Shown here in pieces: positions 1,050-14,755 of a DNA stretch of 64,000 bases; the stretch's first letter is position 1, and each line of letters begins with the position of its first letter. The notes below the pieces were generated by a model. It ran no database searches and had not been told where the DNA came from. It worked only from the letters and a program-made list of their open reading frames with translations. The translations under genes were made by a program, and so were the position numbers. Source of the DNA: an uncultured Actinomycetota bacterium (lineage in GTDB: Bacteria; Actinomycetota; Actinomycetes; CAWDCV01); the NCBI GenBank assembly GCA_963801015.1, contig CAWDCV010000005.1, positions 121,580 through 185,579 of the forward strand. The letters are read 5' to 3'.

Positions 1050-1634
1050 ATGACCGCGACCTACACCTTCGACGTCCTTGCCACCCTCGACGGCTTCGGC
1101 TCCTACGGCCCTGGCGGTGACTGGGGCGGTTACTGGGGCAAGCATGGCCCCGAATTCCTCGACCGCCGCCTCGCCATGTACGGCGAGGGGCAGCGGATGG
1201 TCCTGGGGGCCACCACCTTCCGGGAGTTCATGCAGCTGATGGGCCCGAGCAACGGTGAGTTGGATGAGCTCGACCCAGTGAACACTCGGATGAGGAGCAT
1301 GCCGACAACGGTGGTGTCGACGACGCTGGAAGAACCCCTCGACTGGCCGGACGCGACCATCGTGAGCGGTGACGCCGTCGACGTCGTTACCCGGCTCAAG
1401 GAGGAGTCCGACGTGCCGTTGCGCTCGCACGGCAGCCTGTCGATGAACCGGGCGCTAATGGCCGCCGGCCTCGTCGACCGCGTCCAGGTAACGCTCTTCC
1501 CTGTGATCAGCGGTCAGACCGGTACGGACCCGATCTTCCAGGGTGCGGCCGACTTCGACCTCGAGCTGATCGAGAGCCGGACGCTCGACAGCAACATCCA
1601 AGAGCTCATCTACCGGCCCACCCTGCATGACTGA
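1050..1634 (+). CDS. Dihydrofolate reductase family protein (RibD C-terminal / bacterial deaminase-reductase-like domain)
   Basis: 194-aa ORF MTATYTFDVLATLDGFGSYGP...RVQVTLFPVISGQTG. Typical RibD_C/DHFR-like pattern; ATG start; ATGA overlap with the next gene. Confidence 0.8.
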   Translation: MTATYTFDVLATLDGFGSYGPGGDWGGYWGKHGPEFLDRRLAMYGEGQRMVLGATTFREFMQLMGPSNGELDELDPVNTRMRSMPTTVVSTTLEEPLDWPDATIVSGDAVDVVTRLKEESDVPLRSHGSLSMNRALMAAGLVDRVQVTLFPVISGQTGTDPIFQGAADFDLELIESRTLDSNIQELIYRPTLHD

Positions 1635-2160
1635 GTTCGTCCTGCACCCTCCCGTCATCGATCGCCGCGACCAGGAAGGGCCAATCGTGTCCAACGATCG
1701 CCGGCGTTCTCCACGTCTGCCGCCCCGCTGGTTCGTCCGCCTCGCCTGGTGGGTACACCGCACGGCATTACGCATAAGCGGCGGCCGTTTCGGGCTATGG
1801 CGTCCGAAGCGCGGCCGATGGGGCACGGCTCGTCTCACGACAACCGGGCGCCGTACTGGCCAGCAACGCACAGTGATCGTTGGCTACTTCGAGGATGGTC
1901 CAAATCTCGTCACTCTTGCCATGAACGGTTGGGCCGAGCCGGAGCCAGCCTGGTGGCTCAACCTGCAGGCGCATCCCGACGCCACAGTCGACCTGGTGAA
2001 GGAATCCCGTCCTGTGACGGCCCGCGCTGCCGAGGGAGAGGAACGATCGCGCCTGTGGGCCAGGTGGCGTGACATTGACAGGCAGCTCGACGCCTATGCG
2101 GCGCTGCGGCCGTCCGAAACTGCGGTGGTAATCCTGGAACCGCGGTCCGCGCCCTCGTGA
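1627..2160 (+). CDS. Deazaflavin(F420)-dependent nitroreductase family protein (DUF385/PNPOx-like)
   Basis: 177-aa protein with the RTGQQRTV...GYFEDGPNLVTLAMNGWAEPEPAWWLNLQAHPDATVDL signature of the Ddn-like family. Confidence 0.78.
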   Translation: MTEFVLHPPVIDRRDQEGPIVSNDRRRSPRLPPRWFVRLAWWVHRTALRISGGRFGLWRPKRGRWGTARLTTTGRRTGQQRTVIVGYFEDGPNLVTLAMNGWAEPEPAWWLNLQAHPDATVDLVKESRPVTARAAEGEERSRLWARWRDIDRQLDAYAALRPSETAVVILEPRSAPS

Positions 2161-2194
2161 CGATGAGGTGGCACGAAGAACACGCCCAGCCGTA

Positions 2195-2500
2195 TTACTC
2201 GGCGCAGGCGGCCCGGGCGTAGCGGCGAGAAAGGGCAGCGAAGGCCGCTTTCAGCTCGGGCGGGCCAACGACGTCGACGCCTTCGTCGAATCTGCCGATC
2301 ATCGCCGCAAGACCAAGCCATGACCACGAGCCCATGACGAGCCGGCAAGGGCGGTCACCGACCCTCCAGGCACGTCGCGCTAGGTGAAGCGTGGTCCCGT
2401 AGGCGTGCGCGGAGTGACCCGGTCGATGCGGAAAGATGCGCCAGTCGGCGGGGTCGAGGTCCCAGGCGACGAGGTACCAGCGCCCACCCCGGGTCGCCAC
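2195..2500 (-). pseudogene. Remnant of a WYL-domain transcriptional regulator (WYL + C-terminal WCX part only; HTH N-terminus absent; internal frame shifts)
   Basis: Frame 1 gives GRWYLVAWDLDPADWR... and a WCX-like tail (..VVGPPELKAAFAALSRRY). The expected FR.DRI motif (SFRIDRVT) lies in the +1 frame (ORF 2380..2766), ending at a TAG. No upstream HTH. Confidence 0.5.
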
Positions 2501-2629
2501 GTGTCGGCGAGGAGACGGTGCTCGACAGCAGGCGAGGTGTGCAGCTGTGGCAGACCGGCCGGTTCTCGAGGTTTTACTTCCCCCTCGATGACACCCGGTC
2601 CGATCTTCTGATTCCAGCGACGCGCGAGC

Positions 2630-3174
2630 GTGCGCACGGGGCAGCCGCGGAAGTGGGGCATCCGCGTGGGAGATCGGGAGCTTGCTGACTCGGTCACCGC
2701 GTCCCCGATCACCTCCGAGGGAGACGAGCTGCTGCCTGGGATGGTGTCACTGCGGTACCGCGACATGGATCGGTGGTTCGAGGAGGACGAGCCGATCTAC
2801 GCGCATCCGCGGGATCCGTACCATCGCGTCGACGTCCGACTGTCGTCACGGCAGGTGGTCGTCCTCAGGACGGTCTCGTCGTCGGTGAGACCGATCGGCC
2901 GCGCCTGCTGTTCGAGACGGGGAATCCCATCCGGTATTACCTGCCGTTCGCCGACGTTCGTTCCGAGCTGCTGAGCAAGAGCGCAACGGTGTCGCAGTGC
3001 CCGTACAACGGTGACGGCCAGCACTGGCACCTGACGACGCCGAACGGGATCGTCGAGGACGCCGCGTGGACCCTGCCTCATCCCCTGGCGGAAGGAATGC
3101 CCGCCGCTCAGCACATCTGCTTCTATCCCGACAAGGTCGAGGTCGAGGTGGATGGCGAGCGCGTGAACAAATGA
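2630..3174 (+). pseudogene. DUF427 domain protein disrupted by a -1 frameshift near 2869
   Basis: ORF 2630..2974 (..HPRDPYHRVDVRLSSRQVVVLR) and ORF 2773..3174 (DGLVVGETDRPRLLFETGNPIRYYLPFADVR..CPYNGDGQHWHL..ICFYPDKVEVEVDGERV) join into one complete DUF427 domain. This requires one extra G in the run at 2867-2869 (ctcagg|acgg). Confidence 0.72.
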
Positions 3175-3208
3175 CGCGGACGATCCAGCCATCCGACGGG
3201 AGTACGCG

Positions 3209-3919
3209 TCAGCGTGAACGGCGCTTCGGCCGCGCGGGTCGCGGCGGCGCGGGGCCCGCCCTGAGAGCATCGCTAAGCCCGGCTCGCATCCGGCCGAGCA
3301 CCATCGACCAGGCACTGTCGAGGAACTCGGCCTGCCAATCGTCCGCCGCGAACTGATGCACTGTCACCCGACAGTGCGGCCCGACCGGCTCGAAGCGCAC
3401 GTACGTCACGACCTCCGAACCCGGAACCGGCACCGCTTCGTCCTCGAAGTCCCAGCGCAACGCCAGGAGCGAGTTCGGTACCACGACCTCATAGACGCCG
3501 CGCACCGTCGTGCCCCATTCCAGCTGGGTGGCGAACCTGCCATCGACCAGCGTGACCGGAACGCCCAGCCAGCGCCCGAAGAGGTCGGGATCGGTGAGAC
3601 CGCGAAATGCCGCCTCGCAGCTCTCCTCGACCTTGGCCTCGACGATCACGGCGACGGACCGTGTGCGCTGCGCCAGGTCGCGTTCGGGCAGGTCATCGGC
3701 GGGGGTCCACTTCGTCGCCGGACCGAGCAGAACGTCGGGACGCAGAGATCGCAGCGCACGGGGATCGGCCCGGTAGCGCCGGAAGCTGCCGTCGACGCGC
3801 ATCTGCACGAGCCCGACGGCGCGCAGCACCGCTAGATGCTCCGAGATCGTCGACGCGGACACGTGGAACGCGGACGCGATCTCCCCGGCCGGCAGCTCCT
3901 GGTCACGGACCAGCCACAA
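3209..3919 (-). CDS. ArsR/SmtB-family HTH regulator fused to an SRPBCC (AHSA1/activator-of-Hsp90-ATPase-like) domain
   Basis: N-terminal ..REILWLVRDQELPAGEIASAFHVSASTISEHLAVLRAVGLV (ArsR HTH); C-terminal SRPBCC-like half. The longest ORF starts at TTG 3919, but helix 1 (HPIDIQPLLDALSSPIRREI) is encoded in-frame upstream without a canonical start (see findings). Confidence 0.75.
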   Translation of the reverse strand: MWLVRDQELPAGEIASAFHVSASTISEHLAVLRAVGLVQMRVDGSFRRYRADPRALRSLRPDVLLGPATKWTPADDLPERDLAQRTRSVAVIVEAKVEESCEAAFRGLTDPDLFGRWLGVPVTLVDGRFATQLEWGTTVRGVYEVVVPNSLLALRWDFEDEAVPVPGSEVVTYVRFEPVGPHCRVTVHQFAADDWQAEFLDSAWSMVLGRMRAGLSDALRAGPAPPRPARPKRRSR

Positions 3920-6127: not shown

Positions 6128-6951
6128 CGGCAGAGTCGGTCACCGTCGGCGCTGCGGGGGCGACCTCGCACCGCCGCGGTGCGCCGTCCAACGCTGTCCT
6201 CGGCGTGCTTGGCCTGCTCGGGCTCGTCACGGTGATGGAGCTGCTGCCCCGCACCGGCATTGTCGACAGCAGGTTTCTCCCACCCTTCCACGAGATCGCA
6301 CAAGCTCTTGGCGAGCAGCTTCGTCAGCCCGAGTTCTGGACCGCACTCGGCGGGACGCTGCGCGGATGGGCGATCGGTCTCGCGATCGCCATGGTCGCGG
6401 GCATCGCCCTCGGTGTCGTCATCGGCAGCGTCCCGATGCTGCGCGAAGCGACGAACTCGACGATCGAGTTCCTGCGCCCGATTCCGTCGGTCGCGCTGAT
6501 CCCGCTCGCGGTGCTGCTGTACGGCACCGACATGCGGGCAACGCTGCTGCTCGTCGTCTACGCCAGCTTCTGGCAGGTTCTCGTGCAGGTGCTGTACGGC
6601 GTGCAGGACGTCGACCCGGTCGCTCGCGAGACGTCGCGCAGCTACCGGTTCCGCGCGCTCACCCGTGTCCGTACCGTCATCTGGCCGACGGCGCTGCCGT
6701 ACGTCGTCACCGGCTTCCGCCTCGCCGCTGCCGTCGCGCTCATCCTCGAAGTGACCGGCGAGCTCATCATCGGCAGTCCAGGGCTCGGCAACCTCATCGC
6801 CGTCGCGCAGTCATCGGGTGCATATGCCTCGATGTACGCACTCGTCATGGTCACCGGTCTCATCGGCGTCGCCGTCAATGTGATCGCGCGGCAGGTCGAG
6901 CGGCGGGCGCTGCGCTGGCACCCGTCCATTCGGCGTGAGGTGGCCAGGTGA
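6124..6951 (+). CDS. ABC transporter permease (NitT/TauT family)
   Basis: 275-aa polytopic membrane protein; GTG start overlaps the SBP stop (GTGA). Confidence 0.85.
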   Translation: MTAESVTVGAAGATSHRRGAPSNAVLGVLGLLGLVTVMELLPRTGIVDSRFLPPFHEIAQALGEQLRQPEFWTALGGTLRGWAIGLAIAMVAGIALGVVIGSVPMLREATNSTIEFLRPIPSVALIPLAVLLYGTDMRATLLLVVYASFWQVLVQVLYGVQDVDPVARETSRSYRFRALTRVRTVIWPTALPYVVTGFRLAAAVALILEVTGELIIGSPGLGNLIAVAQSSGAYASMYALVMVTGLIGVAVNVIARQVERRALRWHPSIRREVAR

Positions 6952-8581: not shown

Positions 8582-9772
8582 TTGCCGTCACGGCCGCTTC
8601 TCCGACTCGTCGCAGTCCTGCTCGTCGCGCTCAATCTTCGGAGCGCGATCGCCGCGGTGGCGCCAATCCTGGGAGAGCTTCGCGCGGAGCTGGGGCTGAC
8701 ACCGGCGATGGCCGGACTGCTGACCACGCTGCCCGTCCTTTGCTTCGCCCTGCTGGCTCCCGCCTCGGTCGCGCTCAGTCGGCGGCTCGGGCTGCACGGC
8801 GCGATCCTGCTCGGCTGCGTCGGCATCGCGGTCGGCAGCATCGTGCGGGTCCTCGACGGAGTGCCTCTCCTCCTTGCCGCCACCGTGGTCGTCGGCGCGG
8901 GCATGACCGTTGGCAATGTGCTCGTGCCCGTCGTGGTCAAGGCCGAGTTCGGTCGCCGCGCCGGGCAGATCACCGGGCTCTACACGGCGGCGCTTGTCAG
9001 CGGCGCGTCGATTTCCGCCGCTCTCACCGCACCGCTCGCAAACGCGTGGGGCTGGCGAATCGCGCTGGCGTCCTGGGCCGCTGTCGCGGCCGTTGCCGCC
9101 GTGGTGTGGCGGCTTTCAGCGGCCACACGGTCAGACGACCACGCCGTCGACGGCAGCAGGGAAGCGCCTTCCACCTCGCCGTGGCGTTCGCGGGTCGCGT
9201 GGGCGCTCGGTTTGTTCTTCGGCGTGCAGTCGCTGTGCTACTACGCGGTGACGGCCTGGCTGCCGACGATCCTGGTCGACGAAGCGGGGCTCACCCCTGC
9301 CGCCGCGGGTGGCGGCGCGTCGCTGTTCCAGGTGCTCGGTATCGCCGGGACACTCGCCATTCCCCCGGTCATCCACCGTCGGCCCGCGCAAGGCTGGATC
9401 GCCGCAATCACGGCCGGCGCGTGGTGCGTGCTGTTTGCGGGCCTCCTCGTGTGGCCGGGAGCGTGGCTGCTCTGGGTTGTCATTGGCGGCCTGGCTCAAG
9501 GCGCCACCATCTCGCTCGTCCTCACCCTGCTCGTCCTCCGCGCACATCGGGTCGACGTGGCTCGCCGGCTCTCGGGGATGGCGCAGCTTGTCGGCTATCT
9601 CACCGGTGCCGTGGGCCCGGTGCTGATCGGCTGGCTGTACGGCCGTACCGGTGCGTGGGACGTGCCGCTCCTGACGCTGCTGGGAGTTGCGCTGGCGTTT
9701 GCGATCCTGGGACAGGTGGCCGGCGCCAATCGCAGCGTCGACCCGCTTCCGGGCCGGGGCGCCGTGTCCTAG
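8582..9772 (+). CDS. MFS transporter, CynX/NimT (cyanate-permease-like) family
   Basis: 396 aa, 12 predicted TM helices, TTG start; family call from overall pattern only. Confidence 0.75.
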   Translation: MPSRPLLRLVAVLLVALNLRSAIAAVAPILGELRAELGLTPAMAGLLTTLPVLCFALLAPASVALSRRLGLHGAILLGCVGIAVGSIVRVLDGVPLLLAATVVVGAGMTVGNVLVPVVVKAEFGRRAGQITGLYTAALVSGASISAALTAPLANAWGWRIALASWAAVAAVAAVVWRLSAATRSDDHAVDGSREAPSTSPWRSRVAWALGLFFGVQSLCYYAVTAWLPTILVDEAGLTPAAAGGGASLFQVLGIAGTLAIPPVIHRRPAQGWIAAITAGAWCVLFAGLLVWPGAWLLWVVIGGLAQGATISLVLTLLVLRAHRVDVARRLSGMAQLVGYLTGAVGPVLIGWLYGRTGAWDVPLLTLLGVALAFAILGQVAGANRSVDPLPGRGAVS

Positions 9773-10422
9773 TCGGAGTCGGCAAAGTGGCGGCGGAACC
9801 ACGTGGTCGCTAGCTCGGTGACCCGCTCGAGTGCACCTGGTTCCTCGAACAGGTGCGTCGCGCCGGGCACGACAACCAACTCGCAGTGCGACAGCATGCG
9901 CGAAGCCTGCTCGTTCAGGCGCAACACGTGCGGATCGGCACCGCCCACGACGAGCAGCGTCGCTGCGCGTACGGCCGACAACTGATCTCCGGCGAGATCG
10001 GGTCGACCTCCGCGCGACACGACGGCGCTGACGCGATCCGGTCGGCCTGCCGCAGCCACGAGCGCTGCGGCAGCTCCGGTACTCGCGCCGAATGCACCGA
10101 CCGGCAGCGCGGCAGTCCGCGCATCGGTCGCGAGCCAGTCGACCGCCGCAGTCAATCGATCGCCGAGCAGGCCGATGTCGAAGCGCAGCTCGCGTGTCCG
10201 GTTGTCGAATGACTCCTCCTGCTCGGTGAGCAGATCCAGGAGCAGGGTGGCGAGGCGGGCGTCGTGCAGGCCGGCAGCAACGCGTCGATTGCGGGGACTC
10301 AGTCGGCTGCTGCCCGAGCCGTGAGCGAACAGCACGATTCCGCTCGCTCCGGTCGGTACGACGAGATCGCCGCGCAGCGCGGCGCCCTGCAGCGACAACT
10401 CGACCGTCGACGAATTGGCCAT
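9769..10422 (-). CDS. Dienelactone hydrolase family alpha/beta hydrolase
   Basis: MANSSTVELSLQGAALRGDLVVPTGASGIVLFAHGSGSSRLSPRNRRVA... Start refined to ATG 10422; the track ORF extends to 10710 with junk N-terminus. Confidence 0.78.
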   Translation of the reverse strand: MANSSTVELSLQGAALRGDLVVPTGASGIVLFAHGSGSSRLSPRNRRVAAGLHDARLATLLLDLLTEQEESFDNRTRELRFDIGLLGDRLTAAVDWLATDARTAALPVGAFGASTGAAAALVAAAGRPDRVSAVVSRGGRPDLAGDQLSAVRAATLLVVGGADPHVLRLNEQASRMLSHCELVVVPGATHLFEEPGALERVTELATTWFRRHFADSD

Positions 10423-10590
10423 GACGACCCATCGTCGGACAATTTTGTCGCGTTGGGAGGAGTTGGCGTTACACGAAATTAGCGATCTTTGACATTCCCT
10501 TGGTAGAAAGTGCCCGCGCCACTGGGGCACGATCGGCGTCGACGGGGATTGCACGACGTCACTGAGCCGAGCCGTAGCGGAGTCTTCTGA

Positions 10591-11124
10591 GTGTCGCAAC
10601 GCCGTGCGCGCCACCGTGATCGGGCGCTGCGCCGCCTGTCCGCCCTGAGTAAGAGCGTGGCGGCGGGCGCCGTCATCGCCACCGGCGGGATCACCGTCGC
10701 CATGGGTCAAGCCGCTGCCGTCTCGACGTCCGCAGATGGCGAGGCCGCCTCAGCCGCTGCCCCCGCCGGCACGCTCGAAGCTGCCACCCCAGCCGCATCG
10801 ATGACCGCCCCGCCGGCGGTCGCTATGGAGGCCGCTCCGGCGCCGGCCGAGGGCGCACCTGTCGAGCAGGCCCCCGCGGCTGAACAACCGGCGCCGGCAG
10901 CCACCGGACGTGCCGAGCTGGCCGCCGCCCCGCCGCCACCGCCGAACGAGGAGGCACCGCCCCCGCCGGAGCCGGAGCAGCCGCCGCCGAGCTCGGAGCC
11001 GCCTCCTCCACCGGCGCCCCCACCGGCGCCCCCACCGGCGCCCCCATCGACCCCGCCGAGCTCACCGCCGCCCAGCCCGACGTCGACACCGACCCCCAGC
11101 CCCACCCCCACCGGCGGGTCGTGA
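10591..11124 (+). CDS. Secreted/anchored Pro/Ala-rich low-complexity protein, first gene of the ApbE operon
   Basis: GTG start; basic N-terminus plus hydrophobic segment (SKSVAAGAVIATGGITVAMGQAAA), then a PAPPPAPPP.. low-complexity tail. Its stop overlaps the ApbE start (GTGA). Confidence 0.5.
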   Translation: MSQRRARHRDRALRRLSALSKSVAAGAVIATGGITVAMGQAAAVSTSADGEAASAAAPAGTLEAATPAASMTAPPAVAMEAAPAPAEGAPVEQAPAAEQPAPAATGRAELAAAPPPPPNEEAPPPPEPEQPPPSSEPPPPPAPPPAPPPAPPSTPPSSPPPSPTSTPTPSPTPTGGS

Positions 11125-12101
11125 GTCAGCTTCTTCCCCGTATTCACGTCCCCCAGAGGTCACCGTCGGCCTTCGCTGGGTTTGTGCGGTGCGTGTGGCG
11201 CGCGCTGGGCACCCGGGTAGAGCTCGTCGTACGTGGCTCGACCGAACAGCTGGGCGTTGCTGCCGCACACCTGCGTGACGAACTCGATGCGGTCGACCGC
11301 GCCTGCAGTCGGTTCCGGCCCGACGCGGAGCTGGTCGCCGTCAATGCCGCGGCCGGATCGCGCATTCCGGTCTCGTCGCACTTGGCCGAGGCGGTAGCGG
11401 TCGCATTGCGTGCTGCTTCGCAGACCGACGGCGACGTCGATCCCACCCTGGGCGCGAGCCTCGTTGCAGCAGGCTACGACCGCGACTTCGCCGCGCTCCC
11501 CGTTGATGGACCGCCGATTTTGCCGCCGCCACCACGCCCTAACGCCTGGCGCGAGGTGGAGCTGGACGTTGACCGCCGCACGCTTCGCGTACCGCACGGA
11601 GTCGCTCTCGATCTCGGCGCCACGGCCAAGGCGTGGGCGGCCGACCGTGCTACCGCCCGGATCGCAGCGACCATCTCCGCACCCGTGCTGGTCAGTCTCG
11701 GCGGCGACCTCGCTATCGGTGGACCACCCGACGACCAGCCCGCCCACGGATGGCCGGTACGCCTGACGGACGAGGCGGGTGACGGTGACGGTCCGGTCGC
11801 CTACATCCACGATGGCGGCGTGGCGTCGTCCAGCACCGTCGTACGGCGGTGGCGCCGCGGCGGCGAGACTCTGCACCACATCCTCGACCCGCGCACCGGC
11901 CGGCCCGTCGACCCGGTCTGGCGCATGGTCACGGTCAACGCGGCCACCTGCGTCGACGCCAACACCGCGACGACGGCGGCGATGGTCCGTGGCGCGGCGG
12001 CTCCGTCCTGGCTCGCCCAGCTCGGCCTGCCCAGCCGGCTGGTCGATTCCCACGGCGCTGTGTCCCGGATCGCGGGCTGGCCCGAGGACGCGGTCGCCTA
12101 A
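11121..12101 (+). CDS. apbE: FAD:protein FMN transferase (ApbE family)
   Basis: 326 aa; ..RALGTRVELVV.. N-terminal motif; ApbE-like body (..DLGATAKAWAADRA.., ..LVSLGGDLAIGG..). Confidence 0.82.
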   Translation: MSQLLPRIHVPQRSPSAFAGFVRCVWRALGTRVELVVRGSTEQLGVAAAHLRDELDAVDRACSRFRPDAELVAVNAAAGSRIPVSSHLAEAVAVALRAASQTDGDVDPTLGASLVAAGYDRDFAALPVDGPPILPPPPRPNAWREVELDVDRRTLRVPHGVALDLGATAKAWAADRATARIAATISAPVLVSLGGDLAIGGPPDDQPAHGWPVRLTDEAGDGDGPVAYIHDGGVASSSTVVRRWRRGGETLHHILDPRTGRPVDPVWRMVTVNAATCVDANTATTAAMVRGAAAPSWLAQLGLPSRLVDSHGAVSRIAGWPEDAVA

Positions 12102-12790
12102 TGGGCGTCTTCAGTGACCCGGCGCTGACCTGGTACATCGCGCGTGCGACCGGCGTCGTCACGCTCGTACTCCTGACACTGAGCCTGGTCCTGGGCGTCG
12201 CCGCTAGTAGTCGGACGCTGTCCGCCTCGTGGCCGCGGTTTCTCACCCAAGGTCTGCACCGCAACGTGTCGCTGGCCTGCCTCGCGTTGCTCGTCGCGCA
12301 CATCGTCGCTGTGGTCCTGGACGATTACGTCGTCATCACCTGGCTGGACGCAGCCGTCCCCTTCGTCTCTCAGTACCGGCCGCTTTGGCTCGGGCTCGGC
12401 ACAATCGCCTTCGAGCTCGTCGTGGTGTTGATCGTTTCGAGCCTGCTCCGCCATCGGCTGGGGCACCGGACCTGGCGCGTCGTGCACTGGTCGGCGTACG
12501 CCTGCTGGCCGTTCGCGGTCGTTCATGGCCTCGGCAGTGGCGCCGACTCACGTACCCAGTGGTCGACGTGGGTCACCGCCGGCTGCGTCCTCGCCGTCAT
12601 GATCGCCATCGGCTGGCGGCTCGCGATCGGACGCCCAGAGCGGCGGGCCTGGCGGGCCGGGGCTGCGGCCCTGACCGTCGCCTCCGTCGTCGTACTCGTC
12701 CTGTGGGCCTGGCAGGGACCGCTCGCACCGGGGTGGTCGAAGCGCGCGGGAACGCCCCCGCCGGCATCCTCGGCCGGAGCTGAGCAGTGA
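12101..12790 (+). CDS. Ferric-reductase-like transmembrane (FRD superfamily, MsrQ/YedZ/NOX-like) diheme protein
   Basis: ATG overlaps the ApbE stop (TAATG). There are two His pairs, each spaced 13 residues (LHRN..13..VAHIV and VVHWSAY..13..VVHGLG), typical of the bis-heme b FRD core. Confidence 0.72.
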   Translation: MGVFSDPALTWYIARATGVVTLVLLTLSLVLGVAASSRTLSASWPRFLTQGLHRNVSLACLALLVAHIVAVVLDDYVVITWLDAAVPFVSQYRPLWLGLGTIAFELVVVLIVSSLLRHRLGHRTWRVVHWSAYACWPFAVVHGLGSGADSRTQWSTWVTAGCVLAVMIAIGWRLAIGRPERRAWRAGAAALTVASVVVLVLWAWQGPLAPGWSKRAGTPPPASSAGAEQ

Positions 12791-14049
12791 CCGCCGTGAG
12801 CTCGGAGGTCCCCGTGCGCCGTCGGCGATCCGCGGCGCTGCTCCCGCGACTGCTGGCAGGCGTACAGCCCGGCGTCGGCTCGGTGTCGCTGACCGATCAT
12901 CTCGACATCCACGGGCCGGCGACGTCGACGTCCCTGGATGTCGTCGCCCGCAGCGGGCTGCGCGGGCGCGGCGGCGCCGGATTCCCCGTCGCTGCGAAGA
13001 TGCGCGCGGTCCTGAACGCACGCGGCCGAGCCGTCGTCGTCGCGAATGGCGCCGCCAGCGACCCGCTCAGCGAGAAGGACGCCCTCCTCCTCGCGCGCGT
13101 CCCGCACCTGGTTCTCGACGGCGCGCAACTTGCCGCGCATCTCGTCAAGGCGAAGCGGATCTACCTGTACGTCGTCGGGGTGGACTCGATCCTGACCACA
13201 GTCCGGTACGCCCTGTCCGAGCGGTCGCGGCGCGGACTCGATCAGGTGCCGGTCTCGATCGCGACAGCCCCCGACACCTACGTCGCGGGCGAGGCATCCG
13301 CCGTGGTACAGGCGCTGTCGGGCGGTCCGGCGGTGCCCACGTTCCGCCCGCCCCGGATGGCGGAGCGGGGTGTCGGTCGCCGGCCGACGCTGGTCAACAA
13401 CGTGGAAACGCTCGCGAACCTCGGGCTGCTCGCCCGCCACGACGCCGACTGGTTCCGTCAGCTCGGCCCGGTGGAGGAGCCTGGCTCCCTCGTGATCACC
13501 GTGCACGGGCACGATGGCGTCCCAGCAGTCGCGGAAGTACCGATCGGGACGACCGTCGGCGAGGTGCTGGAGACCACCGACCGGTGGGCGCGGGTGCCGA
13601 CTGCCGTGCTGGTCGGTGGGGCAAGCGGCAGATGGCTGCGCGCCGACATAGCGGTCGAGACCCCACTCAGCCACGACGGGCTACGTGCGGTCGGTGGTGC
13701 GCTGGGCGTCGCCTCGCTCATGGTGCTGCACGACGACGAGTGCGGCCTGATGGAGACGGCGCGGCTGGCCCGCTTTCTCGCGGCGGAGACGGCCGGCCAG
13801 TGCGGACCGTGTATCAACGGGCTGCCGGCCATCGCGTCGACGCTCGCATCGCTGGTCGCCGGCGACGCCGACGATCGCGACGTGGATCGACTCAAGAAGT
13901 GGTGCGGCATCATGCCGGGTCGTGGTGCCTGCGGGCACCCGGACGACACGGCAGGACTCGTCGCGAGTGCGCTGTCGGTGTTCGAGGACGACATCGCGTG
14001 GCACCTGCGGGGTAGCTGCATGCACGCGGCGACCGGTGCGGATCGATGA
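12787..14049 (+). CDS. NuoF-like protein (NADH-binding GRGGAGFP, SLBB, C-terminal 4Fe-4S CxxCxxC..C module)
   Basis: SGLRGRGGAGFPVAAKM NADH/FMN-site motif and C-terminal ETAGQCGPCINGLP...CGIMPGRGACGHP cluster motif; overlaps the FRD gene stop. Confidence 0.78.
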   Translation: MTAVSSEVPVRRRRSAALLPRLLAGVQPGVGSVSLTDHLDIHGPATSTSLDVVARSGLRGRGGAGFPVAAKMRAVLNARGRAVVVANGAASDPLSEKDALLLARVPHLVLDGAQLAAHLVKAKRIYLYVVGVDSILTTVRYALSERSRRGLDQVPVSIATAPDTYVAGEASAVVQALSGGPAVPTFRPPRMAERGVGRRPTLVNNVETLANLGLLARHDADWFRQLGPVEEPGSLVITVHGHDGVPAVAEVPIGTTVGEVLETTDRWARVPTAVLVGGASGRWLRADIAVETPLSHDGLRAVGGALGVASLMVLHDDECGLMETARLARFLAAETAGQCGPCINGLPAIASTLASLVAGDADDRDVDRLKKWCGIMPGRGACGHPDDTAGLVASALSVFEDDIAWHLRGSCMHAATGADR

Positions 14050-14276
14050 CCCGGCCGGAGGGCATGGTGCTGCGCGTCAACCCGATCACCTGCGAGGGGC
14101 ACGGACTGTGCGCCGAGCTGTTGCCGGAGCTGATGTCGCTCGACGACTGGGGCTACCCGTACCCGATGACCGTCGCCGTGCCGCCCAGCTTCGAAGGCCT
14201 CGCCGGCCGTGCCGCAAGGGTGTGCCCGACGCTCGCCATCCACCTCGAACGCCTGCGCACCGAGGCCACCGGCTGA
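14046..14276 (+). CDS. Ferredoxin, single-cluster actinomycete type (CxxHxxC...CP, 3Fe-4S/4Fe-4S)
   Basis: 76 aa; CEGHGLCAELLPEL....RVCPTLAI; ATGA overlap with the NuoF-like gene. Confidence 0.72.
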   Translation: MTRPEGMVLRVNPITCEGHGLCAELLPELMSLDDWGYPYPMTVAVPPSFEGLAGRAARVCPTLAIHLERLRTEATG

Positions 14277-14347
14277 GGAGTCATGGCGGTCGGCAGCATG
14301 CCATCGGGGCCGTGGCAACGACGTCGGGTCCTGCGTACGGTGGCGAC

Positions 14348-14755
14348 GTGGCGACGAGTTGGCTCACCATCGAAGTATTCGATGGCGCATCGCCTGCTCG
14401 CCTGTGGCGCATGTCGCACGGCGAGGGGCTGCTCCTCGCTGCGCTGACCAACGGCGCATCTGACTGGGCCTGGCACGAGCATCGTTGGGGAATCGTGCTG
14501 GAGCTCGCGTTCGACGACGAGCAGCAGCGCAACGACTTCCCGTCACTGCCGGCTGTTCAGGCAGCTCTCGATGCTGCCCCGGATCGCGTCAGCGGCGTGC
14601 TCGTCTACCGCGGGCGCGGCGGAGGAGCGGGCGCAGGTCTCCCGCGGCATCCCCGCCCCGCACCAGTTGCAGGCGCAGCCGCACTACCGGAACCGGACGA
14701 GGATCCACGCATCGAATTCCACACGGAGCCGGATGTCGTCGCCACGGCGGACTGA
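14348..14755 (+). CDS. Hypothetical protein
   Basis: GTG start inside track ORF 13922..14755: MATSWLTIEVFDGASPARLWRMSHGEGLLLAAL..FDDEQQRNDFPSLPAVQAALD... Acidic composition is protein-like. Last in the operon; overlaps the next start. Confidence 0.4.
   Translation: MATSWLTIEVFDGASPARLWRMSHGEGLLLAALTNGASDWAWHEHRWGIVLELAFDDEQQRNDFPSLPAVQAALDAAPDRVSGVLVYRGRGGGAGAGLPRHPRPAPVAGAAALPEPDEDPRIEFHTEPDVVATAD

Follow-up and report, generated by a model that had tools for sequence, protein, structure and literature searches.

A putative C-terminal flavin tag on a membrane-anchored protein of an actinobacterial MsrQ-like electron-transfer cassette

Introduction

Which protein carries the flavin that an ApbE-family transferase would attach, if the operon in which the enzyme is encoded holds no gene for an FMN-binding domain (FMN, flavin mononucleotide)? 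This question is raised by a stretch of 64,000 nucleotides (nt) from an uncultured Actinomycetota bacterium (GenBank assembly GCA_963801015.1, contig CAWDCV010000005.1, positions 121,580 to 185,579 of the forward strand), the whole of which is here called the window. In it, an apbE gene is tightly coupled to genes for a di-heme membrane protein of the FRD type, a NuoF-like protein, a ferredoxin and a small membrane-anchored protein, here called g1, in which no known domain was found. We consider it somewhat probable that these five genes form a transmembrane electron-transfer module of the MsrQ-like/NOX type, whose flavin carrier is the tagged but domain-less membrane protein g1.

Flavinylated proteins represent a major route for electrons out of bacterial cells, and the natural ApbE substrates named in the literature cited here hold their flavin in or beside a folded flavin-binding domain. 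The minimal ApbE motif comprises seven residues, D-x-x-[S/T]-G-A-[S/T], the last of which receives the FMN; hereby, an exchange of the Asp to Ala had little effect in a model substrate, and short flavinylation tags perform best at protein termini (PMC12052999). Unstructured C-terminal extensions of FMN_red proteins have been shown to be flavinylated (PMC11334425), and a minority of ApbEs is cytosolic and modifies cytoplasmic targets (PMC12052999). In a survey of flavinylation-associated gene clusters, Méheust et al. (2021, eLife) defined 1,797 "MsrQ-like" clusters, broadly conserved in Actinobacteria, of which 31 contain a NuoF-like PF10589 protein as the probable entry point for NAD(P)H. Their scheme expected an FMN-binding, DUF2271 or DUF3570 substrate, and their pipeline dropped ApbE and FMN-binding genes without a predicted signal peptide (PMC8238504).

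Results

The operon, as read directly from the sequence, consists of five co-directional genes (10591-14276), which are given here together with the C-terminal tag of g1 (aa, amino acids; TM, transmembrane).

10591..11124, forward strand: g1, small membrane-anchored protein of 177 aa, candidate ApbE substrate (no Pfam or NCBIfam match; coding signature in the comparison with locus L004)
11110..11124, forward strand: C-terminal T-G-G-S codons of g1 with the TGA stop, flavinylation-like [ST]-G-[GAS]-[ST]-COOH tag (stop overlaps the GTG start of the ApbE gene; family alignment)
11121..12101, forward strand: ApbE-family FAD:protein FMN transferase of 326 aa (FAD, flavin adenine dinucleotide; PF02424, E=7.7e-46)
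12101..12790, forward strand: di-heme FRD / MsrQ-like / NOX-type membrane protein of 229 aa with six TM helices (PF01794, E=5e-8)
12787..14049, forward strand: NuoF-like soluble NAD(P)H/FMN/iron-sulfur (Fe-S) protein of 420 aa (PF01512, E=3e-31; PF10589, E=8e-19)
14046..14276, forward strand: small ferredoxin of 76 aa with a CxxHxxC...CP cluster motif (PF13459 Fer4_15, E=1.4e-10)

Pfam profile searches confirmed the domain identities that the initial annotation of this DNA had proposed for the ApbE, FRD, NuoF-like and ferredoxin genes. The same annotation had described six genes linked by overlaps; this stands for the first five, which are joined by GTGA (g1/ApbE, 11121-11124), TAATG (ApbE/FRD, 12099-12103), GTGA (FRD/NuoF-like, 12787-12790) and ATGA (NuoF-like/ferredoxin, 14046-14049), and does not extend to the sixth, which follows after a gap. 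Inside the five-gene unit neither a sigma-70 promoter nor an intrinsic terminator was found, no Rfam element interrupts it, and no FMN or other riboswitch was found upstream of it. The GC content of the window is high (approximately 66-73%).

The g1 protein has an Arg-rich N-terminus (HRDRALRRLS). Its one TM helix lies at approximately residues 22-44 (nt 10654-10722), and beyond it a linker rich in Pro and Ala leads to the C-terminal TGGS (last five residues PTGGS). Pfam and NCBIfam profile searches gave no match, and there is no Pfam model for its family. Compared to the related locus L004, a soil metagenome-assembled genome (MAG; "uncultured Actinomycetota MFD02360.bin.1.34") with 93-95% nucleotide identity to the window, g1 shows 1, 2 and 15 substitutions at codon positions 1, 2 and 3, respectively, and one in-frame indel of 24 nt; this third-position bias and the preserved frame indicate that g1 is translated. 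A word-indexed homologue search found no match, and an exhaustive phmmer search found four, three of them clade-mates, of which two are truncated. The g1 family is thus almost absent from protein databases and almost unannotated, and its distribution was therefore derived from our own analysis of open reading frames (ORFs). To this end we used 83 loci, mostly from soil Actinomycetota, which were retrieved from the at least 600 genomic stretches that encode relatives of the FRD protein, and took as candidate g1-family member the ORF that ends just 5' of the ApbE gene, or of the FRD gene where there is no ApbE.

A g1-family protein is present in 68 of the 80 evaluable loci. The family has an Arg-rich N-terminal motif, a-R-D-x-g-L-x-R-[VIL], and one hydrophobic helix, after which there is a low-complexity tail of 38-130 residues (Ala 18%, Pro 18%, Ser 15%, Gly 11%, Thr 10%, Gln 8%), with g-[ST]-[LI]-x-x-P-[AS]-Q-x-P as a frequent linker element. 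The number of Lys and Arg residues is 5.4 on the N-terminal flank of the helix versus 1.35 after it, a strong prediction of an N-in/C-out orientation. The C-terminus follows the pattern [VT]-[ST]-G-[GAS]-[ST]-stop. Among 66 non-redundant members, position -4 is Ser in 62 and Thr in four, position -3 is Gly in all 66, position -2 is Gly in 49, Ala in 13 and Ser in four, and the last residue is Ser in 64 and Thr in two. The initial annotation had found no canonical flavinylation motif in any of the six proteins; a flavinylation-like one is present, as the T-G-G-S-stop of g1 is the local form of this family-wide ending. A tag-like ending occurs in 0.8% of the 10,960 open frames in the loci, which is an upper bound because the g1 ORFs themselves are counted.

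Such an ending could in principle be a by-product of the ribosome-binding site of the next gene. We rejected this explanation, since the Ser codons (TCG, TCC, TCA, TCT, AGC, AGT), the Gly codons (all four) and the stop codon (TGA, TAG or TAA) vary, and so does the distance from the end of the g1-family ORF to the tblastn match of the next gene (-63 to +210 nt). Selection thus acts on the protein ending of g1 and not on a ribosome-binding site. Likewise rejected was a single, frameshifted gene made up of g1 and ApbE, because no relative has the two frames joined, and because translation of the ApbE frame 5' of its start gives Arg-rich noise without a TM helix. Export of g1 by the twin-arginine translocation (Tat) pathway, or with ApbE hitch-hiking on it, was dismissed as unsupported: of the "RR" only the second Arg is conserved in the family. 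As a separate observation, locus L051 has a second g1-like ORF (11812-12135) approximately 4 kb 3' of the FRD gene and away from any ApbE match, with RDVGLRRV, a TM helix and the end ...PIVSGAS.

In the ApbE protein, the PF02424 domain starts at residue 29, and the motifs DLGATAK, HHILDPRTG and DANTATT align to TM1553 and to solved FAD:protein FMN transferases, its best solved relatives. Judged by inspection, neither this protein nor approximately 55 relatives have a signal peptide, a lipobox or a hydrophobic N-terminal segment; they start 10-30 residues before the domain, and thus do not show the periplasmic or lipoprotein localisation typical of such enzymes. An ApbE gene lies directly 5' of the FRD gene in 58 of the 80 evaluable loci, where it is also 3' of g1, usually with an ATGA or GTGA junction and a start within the g1 stop codon. 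Locus L025 has a separate cluster (1160-3486) 5 kb 5' of the main one, in which the gene for a signal-less ApbE (314 aa) overlaps that for a short FRD-like protein (197 aa), and the next gene encodes a protein of 258 aa with a TM helix at its N-terminus; the pairing of signal-less ApbE and FRD may be a wider theme.

With regard to the substrate of this ApbE, neither the six window proteins nor the genes called in the related loci L001-L003 gave a match to the FMN-binding domain PF04205. Within the cassette only g1 has a [ST]-G-x-[ST] element with a hydroxyl residue at its end. Other candidate sites were rejected: loop 4 of the FRD protein (G-[ST]-G-x-D) ends in an invariant Asp, and the "NGAAS" and "AGEASA" of the NuoF-like protein are not conserved as Ser/Thr motifs. 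Because its tag resembles the core of the motif and is conserved, and because ApbE adjoins it, g1 is the likely ApbE substrate, i.e. a natural C-terminal flavin tag without an FMN-binding domain; its flavinylation we infer. The initial annotation had supposed that ApbE flavinylates an exported partner, perhaps the Pro/Ala-rich protein. The C-terminal motif favours just this protein, but its export is not straightforward, as ApbE itself has no export signal.

The FRD protein matches PF01794 (Ferric_reduct) with 33.5 bits against a cut-off of 28. In an alignment of 38 sequences the predicted heme ligands H53, H67, H129 and H142 are invariant. The two His-13-His pairs noted initially thus stand as a bis-heme pattern of four His, with the spacing amended to H53-x13-H67 and H129-x12-H142, the TM3/TM5 signature of NOX. 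An AlphaFold2 model (predicted local distance difference test, pLDDT, 82) has six long helices, and Foldseek matches it best to SpNOX, Dcytb, STEAP2 and cytochrome b561, with csNOX5, STEAP and DUOX as further close folds; the predicted fold is hence similar to the solved transmembrane domains of NOX and STEAP proteins. As the Pfam profile begins at residue 17, TM1 probably corresponds to TM2 of NOX. Loops 1, 3 and 5 have net charges of +2.5, +3.7 and +2.1, while loops 2 and 4, like the N-terminus, are neutral or negative. Based on these charges and the helix correspondence, the N-terminus is predicted to lie outside, and the extra sixth helix would bring the C-terminal tail outside as well. 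This tail is conserved as GPLAPGW-x-[KR]-R-A-G-T-P (in the window GPLAPGW-x-KRAGTP), with G217-T218-P219 nearly invariant. "Long-form" FRD proteins of approximately 360-400 aa occur in L003 (8001-9140, P0116) and in many Solirubrobacterales and Acidimicrobiales loci. Absent from the window protein, their additional part follows the sixth helix and comprises a linker and a predicted beta-sandwich domain of eight strands (pLDDT approximately 95, no Pfam match); with the predicted topology, this domain would lie outside the cell and could be an acceptor- or flavin-docking domain.

The NuoF-like protein aligns along its length to Nqo1 of T. thermophilus, its best PDB match (E=2e-48). It reaches only 208 bits with the NCBIfam model nuoF_fam (TIGR01959; cut-off 558.65), and no nuoE or nuoG neighbours were found at the window locus or in L001-L003; for both reasons we call it NuoF-like and not a complex I subunit. 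The FMN loop GRGGAGFP is conserved in 69 relatives. Hereby, C339, C342 and C382 are invariant and C319 is found in 68 of the 69, while the first canonical Cys of cluster N3 (ESCGxC motif) is Ala in all of them, so that three of the four canonical Cys are kept; C319 may replace the missing one. An additional H406...C411 pair near the C-terminus is conserved in 67 of the 69. In the window clade the protein has NGAASDP where the family consensus keeps both Glu of the NADH-site motif N-G-x-E-x-E-P. The CxxHxxC...CP motif of the ferredoxin is typical of actinobacterial 3Fe-4S/4Fe-4S ferredoxins. Both proteins are longer in the closest Mycobacteriales-like relatives (L001 8678-10195 and 11131-11703, L002 10487-11728): the N-terminus of the NuoF-like protein is extended by approximately 100 aa of low complexity, and the ferredoxin is fused to 120-340 aa of Pro/Tyr/Gly-rich repeats, e.g. 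"GSYEPPSYGG".

These extensions bear on the side of the membrane on which a flavin of g1 would sit. Since the NuoF-like protein and ferredoxin of L001/L002, which are presumably cytoplasmic, carry long low-complexity extensions as well, the Pro/Ala-rich linker of g1 is no proof of an outside location. In a second reading, g1 would be flavinylated but keep its flavin on the cytoplasmic side, as a tethered mediator between the NuoF-like protein or ferredoxin and the inner heme, comparable to the role that FAD plays in NOX or STEAP. Such a placement would account for the lack of an export signal on ApbE throughout the family, and would be in line with the known cytosolic ApbEs that have cytoplasmic targets (PMC12052999). 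The charge distribution around the g1 helix opposes it, and an extra inner flavin would be redundant, as the Fe-S cluster of the NuoF-like protein and the ferredoxin would already deliver single electrons to the heme. Hence, we regard a cytoplasmic flavin on g1 as quite unlikely.

The FRD protein has 2,347 scored homologues; sources annotate homologues as MsrQ/YedZ. The hosts of its relatives include Solirubrobacterales, Acidimicrobiales, Streptosporangiaceae, one Mycobacteriales MAG and single Chloroflexota and Dormibacterota MAGs, and the full cassette is found in the cultured Catenulispora pinisilvae NH11 and Actinocrinis puniceicyclus DSM 45618. Of 72 evaluable loci, 66 have the NuoF-like gene 3' of the FRD gene, and the ferredoxin gene, placed after it, is likewise found in 66 of 72. 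The initial annotation had named three findings that would speak against an electron-transfer cassette, namely loss of the heme-ligating His in homologues, a cassette that is not conserved as a unit in related genomes, and an ApbE that is a generic orphan. None of the three was encountered: the His are invariant in the alignment, the unit is kept in related loci, and ApbE did not turn out to be such an orphan.

A comparison of the regions upstream of the cassette between the window clade and L002/L005/L006 revealed no common element as a shared operator. L002 (approximately 6300-6330) and L006 (approximately 3250-3280) carry a GC-rich, near-perfect palindrome 5' of g1, which in L002 has the form GCGGACCGCGCG-A-CGCGCGGTCCGC. 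The window and L004 have an AT-richer stretch at this position instead, TTACACGAAATTAGCGATCTTTGACA (10469-10494 in the window). A gene of the dienelactone-hydrolase family is repeatedly found within a few kb 5' of the cassette (window 9769-10432, reverse strand; L001 32-694; L003 1-267), and the one in the window is divergent from g1.

The sixth gene of the initial annotation, a small acidic hypothetical, is as follows.

14312..14755, forward strand (start at GTG 14312 or GTG 14348): sixth ORF, conserved hypothetical outside the system (767 homologues without Pfam match)

It is not overlap-coupled, as the ferredoxin stop lies at 14274-14276 and the first in-frame starts are the two GTG codons. 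Homology to L004 extends to 14277 and resumes at 14742; between these points there are 464 nt (14278-14741) in the window versus 96 nt in L004. By tblastn, no homologue was found in any of the 83 related loci. The homologues of its product (approximately 135-147 aa), e.g. in Amycolatopsis and Geodermatophilus, have no Pfam match either and lie in unrelated gene neighbourhoods, and its 3' end overlaps the start of a downstream ABC exporter (ATG 14733) by 23 nt. Judged by these homologues, the ORF is a real and widespread hypothetical protein, but with the indel relative to L004, its absence from the related loci and the unrelated contexts elsewhere, it was rejected as a component of the system.

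Discussion

The chain proposed initially, in which electrons pass from NAD(P)H via FMN/Fe-S and ferredoxin to two transmembrane hemes and on to the outside, fits the invariant His, the NOX/STEAP-like fold, the conserved FMN loop and Cys residues and the synteny. In the mechanism that we propose, the soluble NuoF-like protein would oxidise NAD(P)H on a non-covalently bound FMN and pass single electrons through its Fe-S cluster to the ferredoxin, as suggested by the domains and the conserved ligands. The ferredoxin would then reduce the inner heme b at the positively charged cytoplasmic face of the FRD protein, from where electrons would cross to the outer heme, a step for which the NOX-pattern His and the fold argue. 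Translationally coupled to g1, ApbE would transfer FMN from FAD to the hydroxyl group of the terminal Ser of g1, as the motif, its conservation and the gene adjacency suggest. Anchored beside the FRD protein by its one N-in TM helix, g1 would hold this covalent FMN outside on its disordered Pro/Ala-rich tail, where the flavin would take electrons from the outer heme and hand them to an acceptor outside the cytoplasm, which might be Fe(III), some other oxidant or a partner enzyme. Thus, g1 would stand in for the protein with an FMN-binding domain that ordinary MsrQ-like systems have. With no export signal on the ApbEs of this clade, tagging would most likely occur in the cytoplasm, where FAD is available, and the unstructured tail would be translocated afterwards; of all steps of the proposal this one is the weakest, and it is speculative.

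Several findings weigh against this proposal. Position -2 is Gly in 74% of the family and in the window, where the canonical motif has Ala. At position -7 there is no canonical Asp, the family having Pro, Gln, Val, His, Ala or Gly instead. In 17 of the 68 g1-bearing loci the SGGS motif is kept without an adjacent ApbE; in these, either an ApbE acts from elsewhere in the genome, or SGGS serves some other purpose. Among the loci without an adjacent ApbE, at least L024 and L025 have one within 8 kb. A cytoplasmic location is predicted for ApbE and, by the positive-inside rule, an outside one for the g1 tail, so that modification would have to precede export, for which we know of no precedent. The predicted topology itself rests on charge rules and on homology to NOX. 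Finally, no conserved reductase or iron transporter was found near the cassette in the neighbourhoods of the window and of L001-L003, and the neighbours vary between genomes.

The deviations from the canonical motif, the loci without an adjacent ApbE and the placement of ApbE and the g1 tail on opposite sides of the membrane would all be compatible with a g1 whose role in the FRD complex is confined to structure or assembly, and whose SGGS is a docking or processing motif that has nothing to do with flavin. The target of ApbE would then be another one, for example a protein with an FMN-binding domain whose gene lies elsewhere, or a conserved Thr in the FRD protein itself such as T218 of RAGTP, which is part of the nearly invariant G217-T218-P219. 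Yet RAGTP does not resemble a flavinylation motif, and FRD loop 4 with its terminal Asp offers no hydroxyl end, which leaves g1 with the only suitable element of the cassette. Furthermore, the genes searched for PF04205 yielded no alternative substrate, and the ApbE gene, where there is one, is coupled to g1 by an overlap and comes before the FRD gene. A purely structural g1 thus appears unlikely to us, and we prefer g1 as the flavin carrier.

A further question concerns the end use of the electrons, and is compatible with either role of g1. Instead of a dedicated system for extracellular electron transfer or iron reduction, the cassette might be a three-component enzyme similar to NADPH oxidase, or a supplier of electrons to an unlinked periplasmic reductase of the MsrP type. 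The closest folds (SpNOX, csNOX5, STEAP, DUOX), the MsrQ/YedZ annotation of the homologues and the missing iron transporter or terminal reductase nearby point in this direction. Conversely, no MsrP-type gene was found in the annotated neighbourhoods of the window and L001-L003, and a conserved tethered-flavin partner is, to our knowledge, not a feature of known NOX enzymes. Taken together, we hold this end use to be very unlikely.

If g1 is indeed the flavin carrier, it might belong to a class of ApbE substrate that has not been described so far: a single-pass protein without a flavin fold, with FMN on the last residue of a disordered tether of 40-130 residues, which is tagged in the cytoplasm, threaded outward and swings between a NOX-type outer heme and distant acceptors located within the cell wall or past it. 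The tag of four residues at the C-terminus would be its only conserved extracytoplasmic feature. This extended picture is possible, though we consider it doubtful. Were it true, a covalent flavin could serve as a tethered shuttle rather than as a fixed relay, a substrate would be assigned to a clade of signal-less "orphan" ApbEs, and nature would be using the minimal-tag logic that protein engineers adopted in 2021. It also raises the question whether flavinylation can precede export. With Catenulispora pinisilvae and Actinocrinis puniceicyclus as cultured hosts, the idea of a flavin tag is directly testable.

Comparison with known systems

The initial annotation had not assigned the system to a known class. 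Since the MsrQ-like class and its NuoF-like variant have been defined (PMC8238504), the overall architecture is, judged by its genes, of a kind that was already described from sequence analysis. Of the features by which this class is recognised, the PF01794 gene and an ApbE gene (or, alternatively, an FMN-binding, DUF2271 or DUF3570 gene) are present, while two typical ones, a signal peptide on ApbE and a PF04205 partner, are absent. Shared with the NuoF-containing variant are an apbE gene clustered with that of a PF01794 di-heme membrane protein, NAD(P)H as the probable cytosolic donor via a PF10589 NuoF-like protein and a predominantly actinobacterial distribution, and both are known from sequence analysis alone. 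In contrast to that variant, the cassette has no PF04205, DUF2271 or DUF3570 substrate gene but a small, domain-less TM protein with a C-terminal tag, an ApbE without signal peptide, an FRD protein whose extra sixth helix would place the C-terminus outside, and a dedicated ferredoxin within the unit.

With NOX, STEAP and MsrQ proteins the FRD protein shares four conserved His of the heme-ligating type on two helices with NOX spacing. Compared to SpNOX, csNOX5 and STEAP4, the donor here would be a separate NuoF-like flavo-Fe-S protein together with a ferredoxin and not a fused FNR-like FAD/NADPH domain; TM1 would correspond to NOX TM2, a C-terminal helix is added, and an ApbE and a tagged partner are associated. 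The proposed role of covalent, ApbE-attached FMN as an extracytoplasmic electron relay resembles extracellular electron transfer in Listeria (PplA/FmnB) and the NQR and RNF complexes. The initial view that there is no gene-for-gene match to these systems was borne out: no NqrB/RnfD-, NqrC/RnfG-type or PplA/Ndh2/EetAB components were found in the cassette, in which the sole matches of NQR/RNF type are weak ones of the NuoF-like protein to RnfC/RsxC profiles (40-50 bits versus cut-offs of 246-345). In those systems, unlike here, ApbE/FmnB is exported, the flavin is borne either by a folded FMN-binding domain or by an integral subunit, and the electrons are supplied by quinol or by an NqrF/RnfC-type module.

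The closest likeness to the g1 ending is found in the engineered Flavin-tag (Tong et al. 2021; PMC12052999) and in the FMN_red extensions (PMC11334425), where ApbE needs no more than a short, unstructured terminal [ST]-G-A-[ST] peptide, to whose final residue it attaches the FMN. In g1, different from both, the tag would occur naturally and on its own, carried by a membrane anchor without an adjoining flavoprotein domain, and the Ser that is modified would end the whole protein; Gly is common at position -2, and there is no Asp at position -7. In conclusion, it is the first gene, g1, that appears to be new, while the remaining architecture has been described before.

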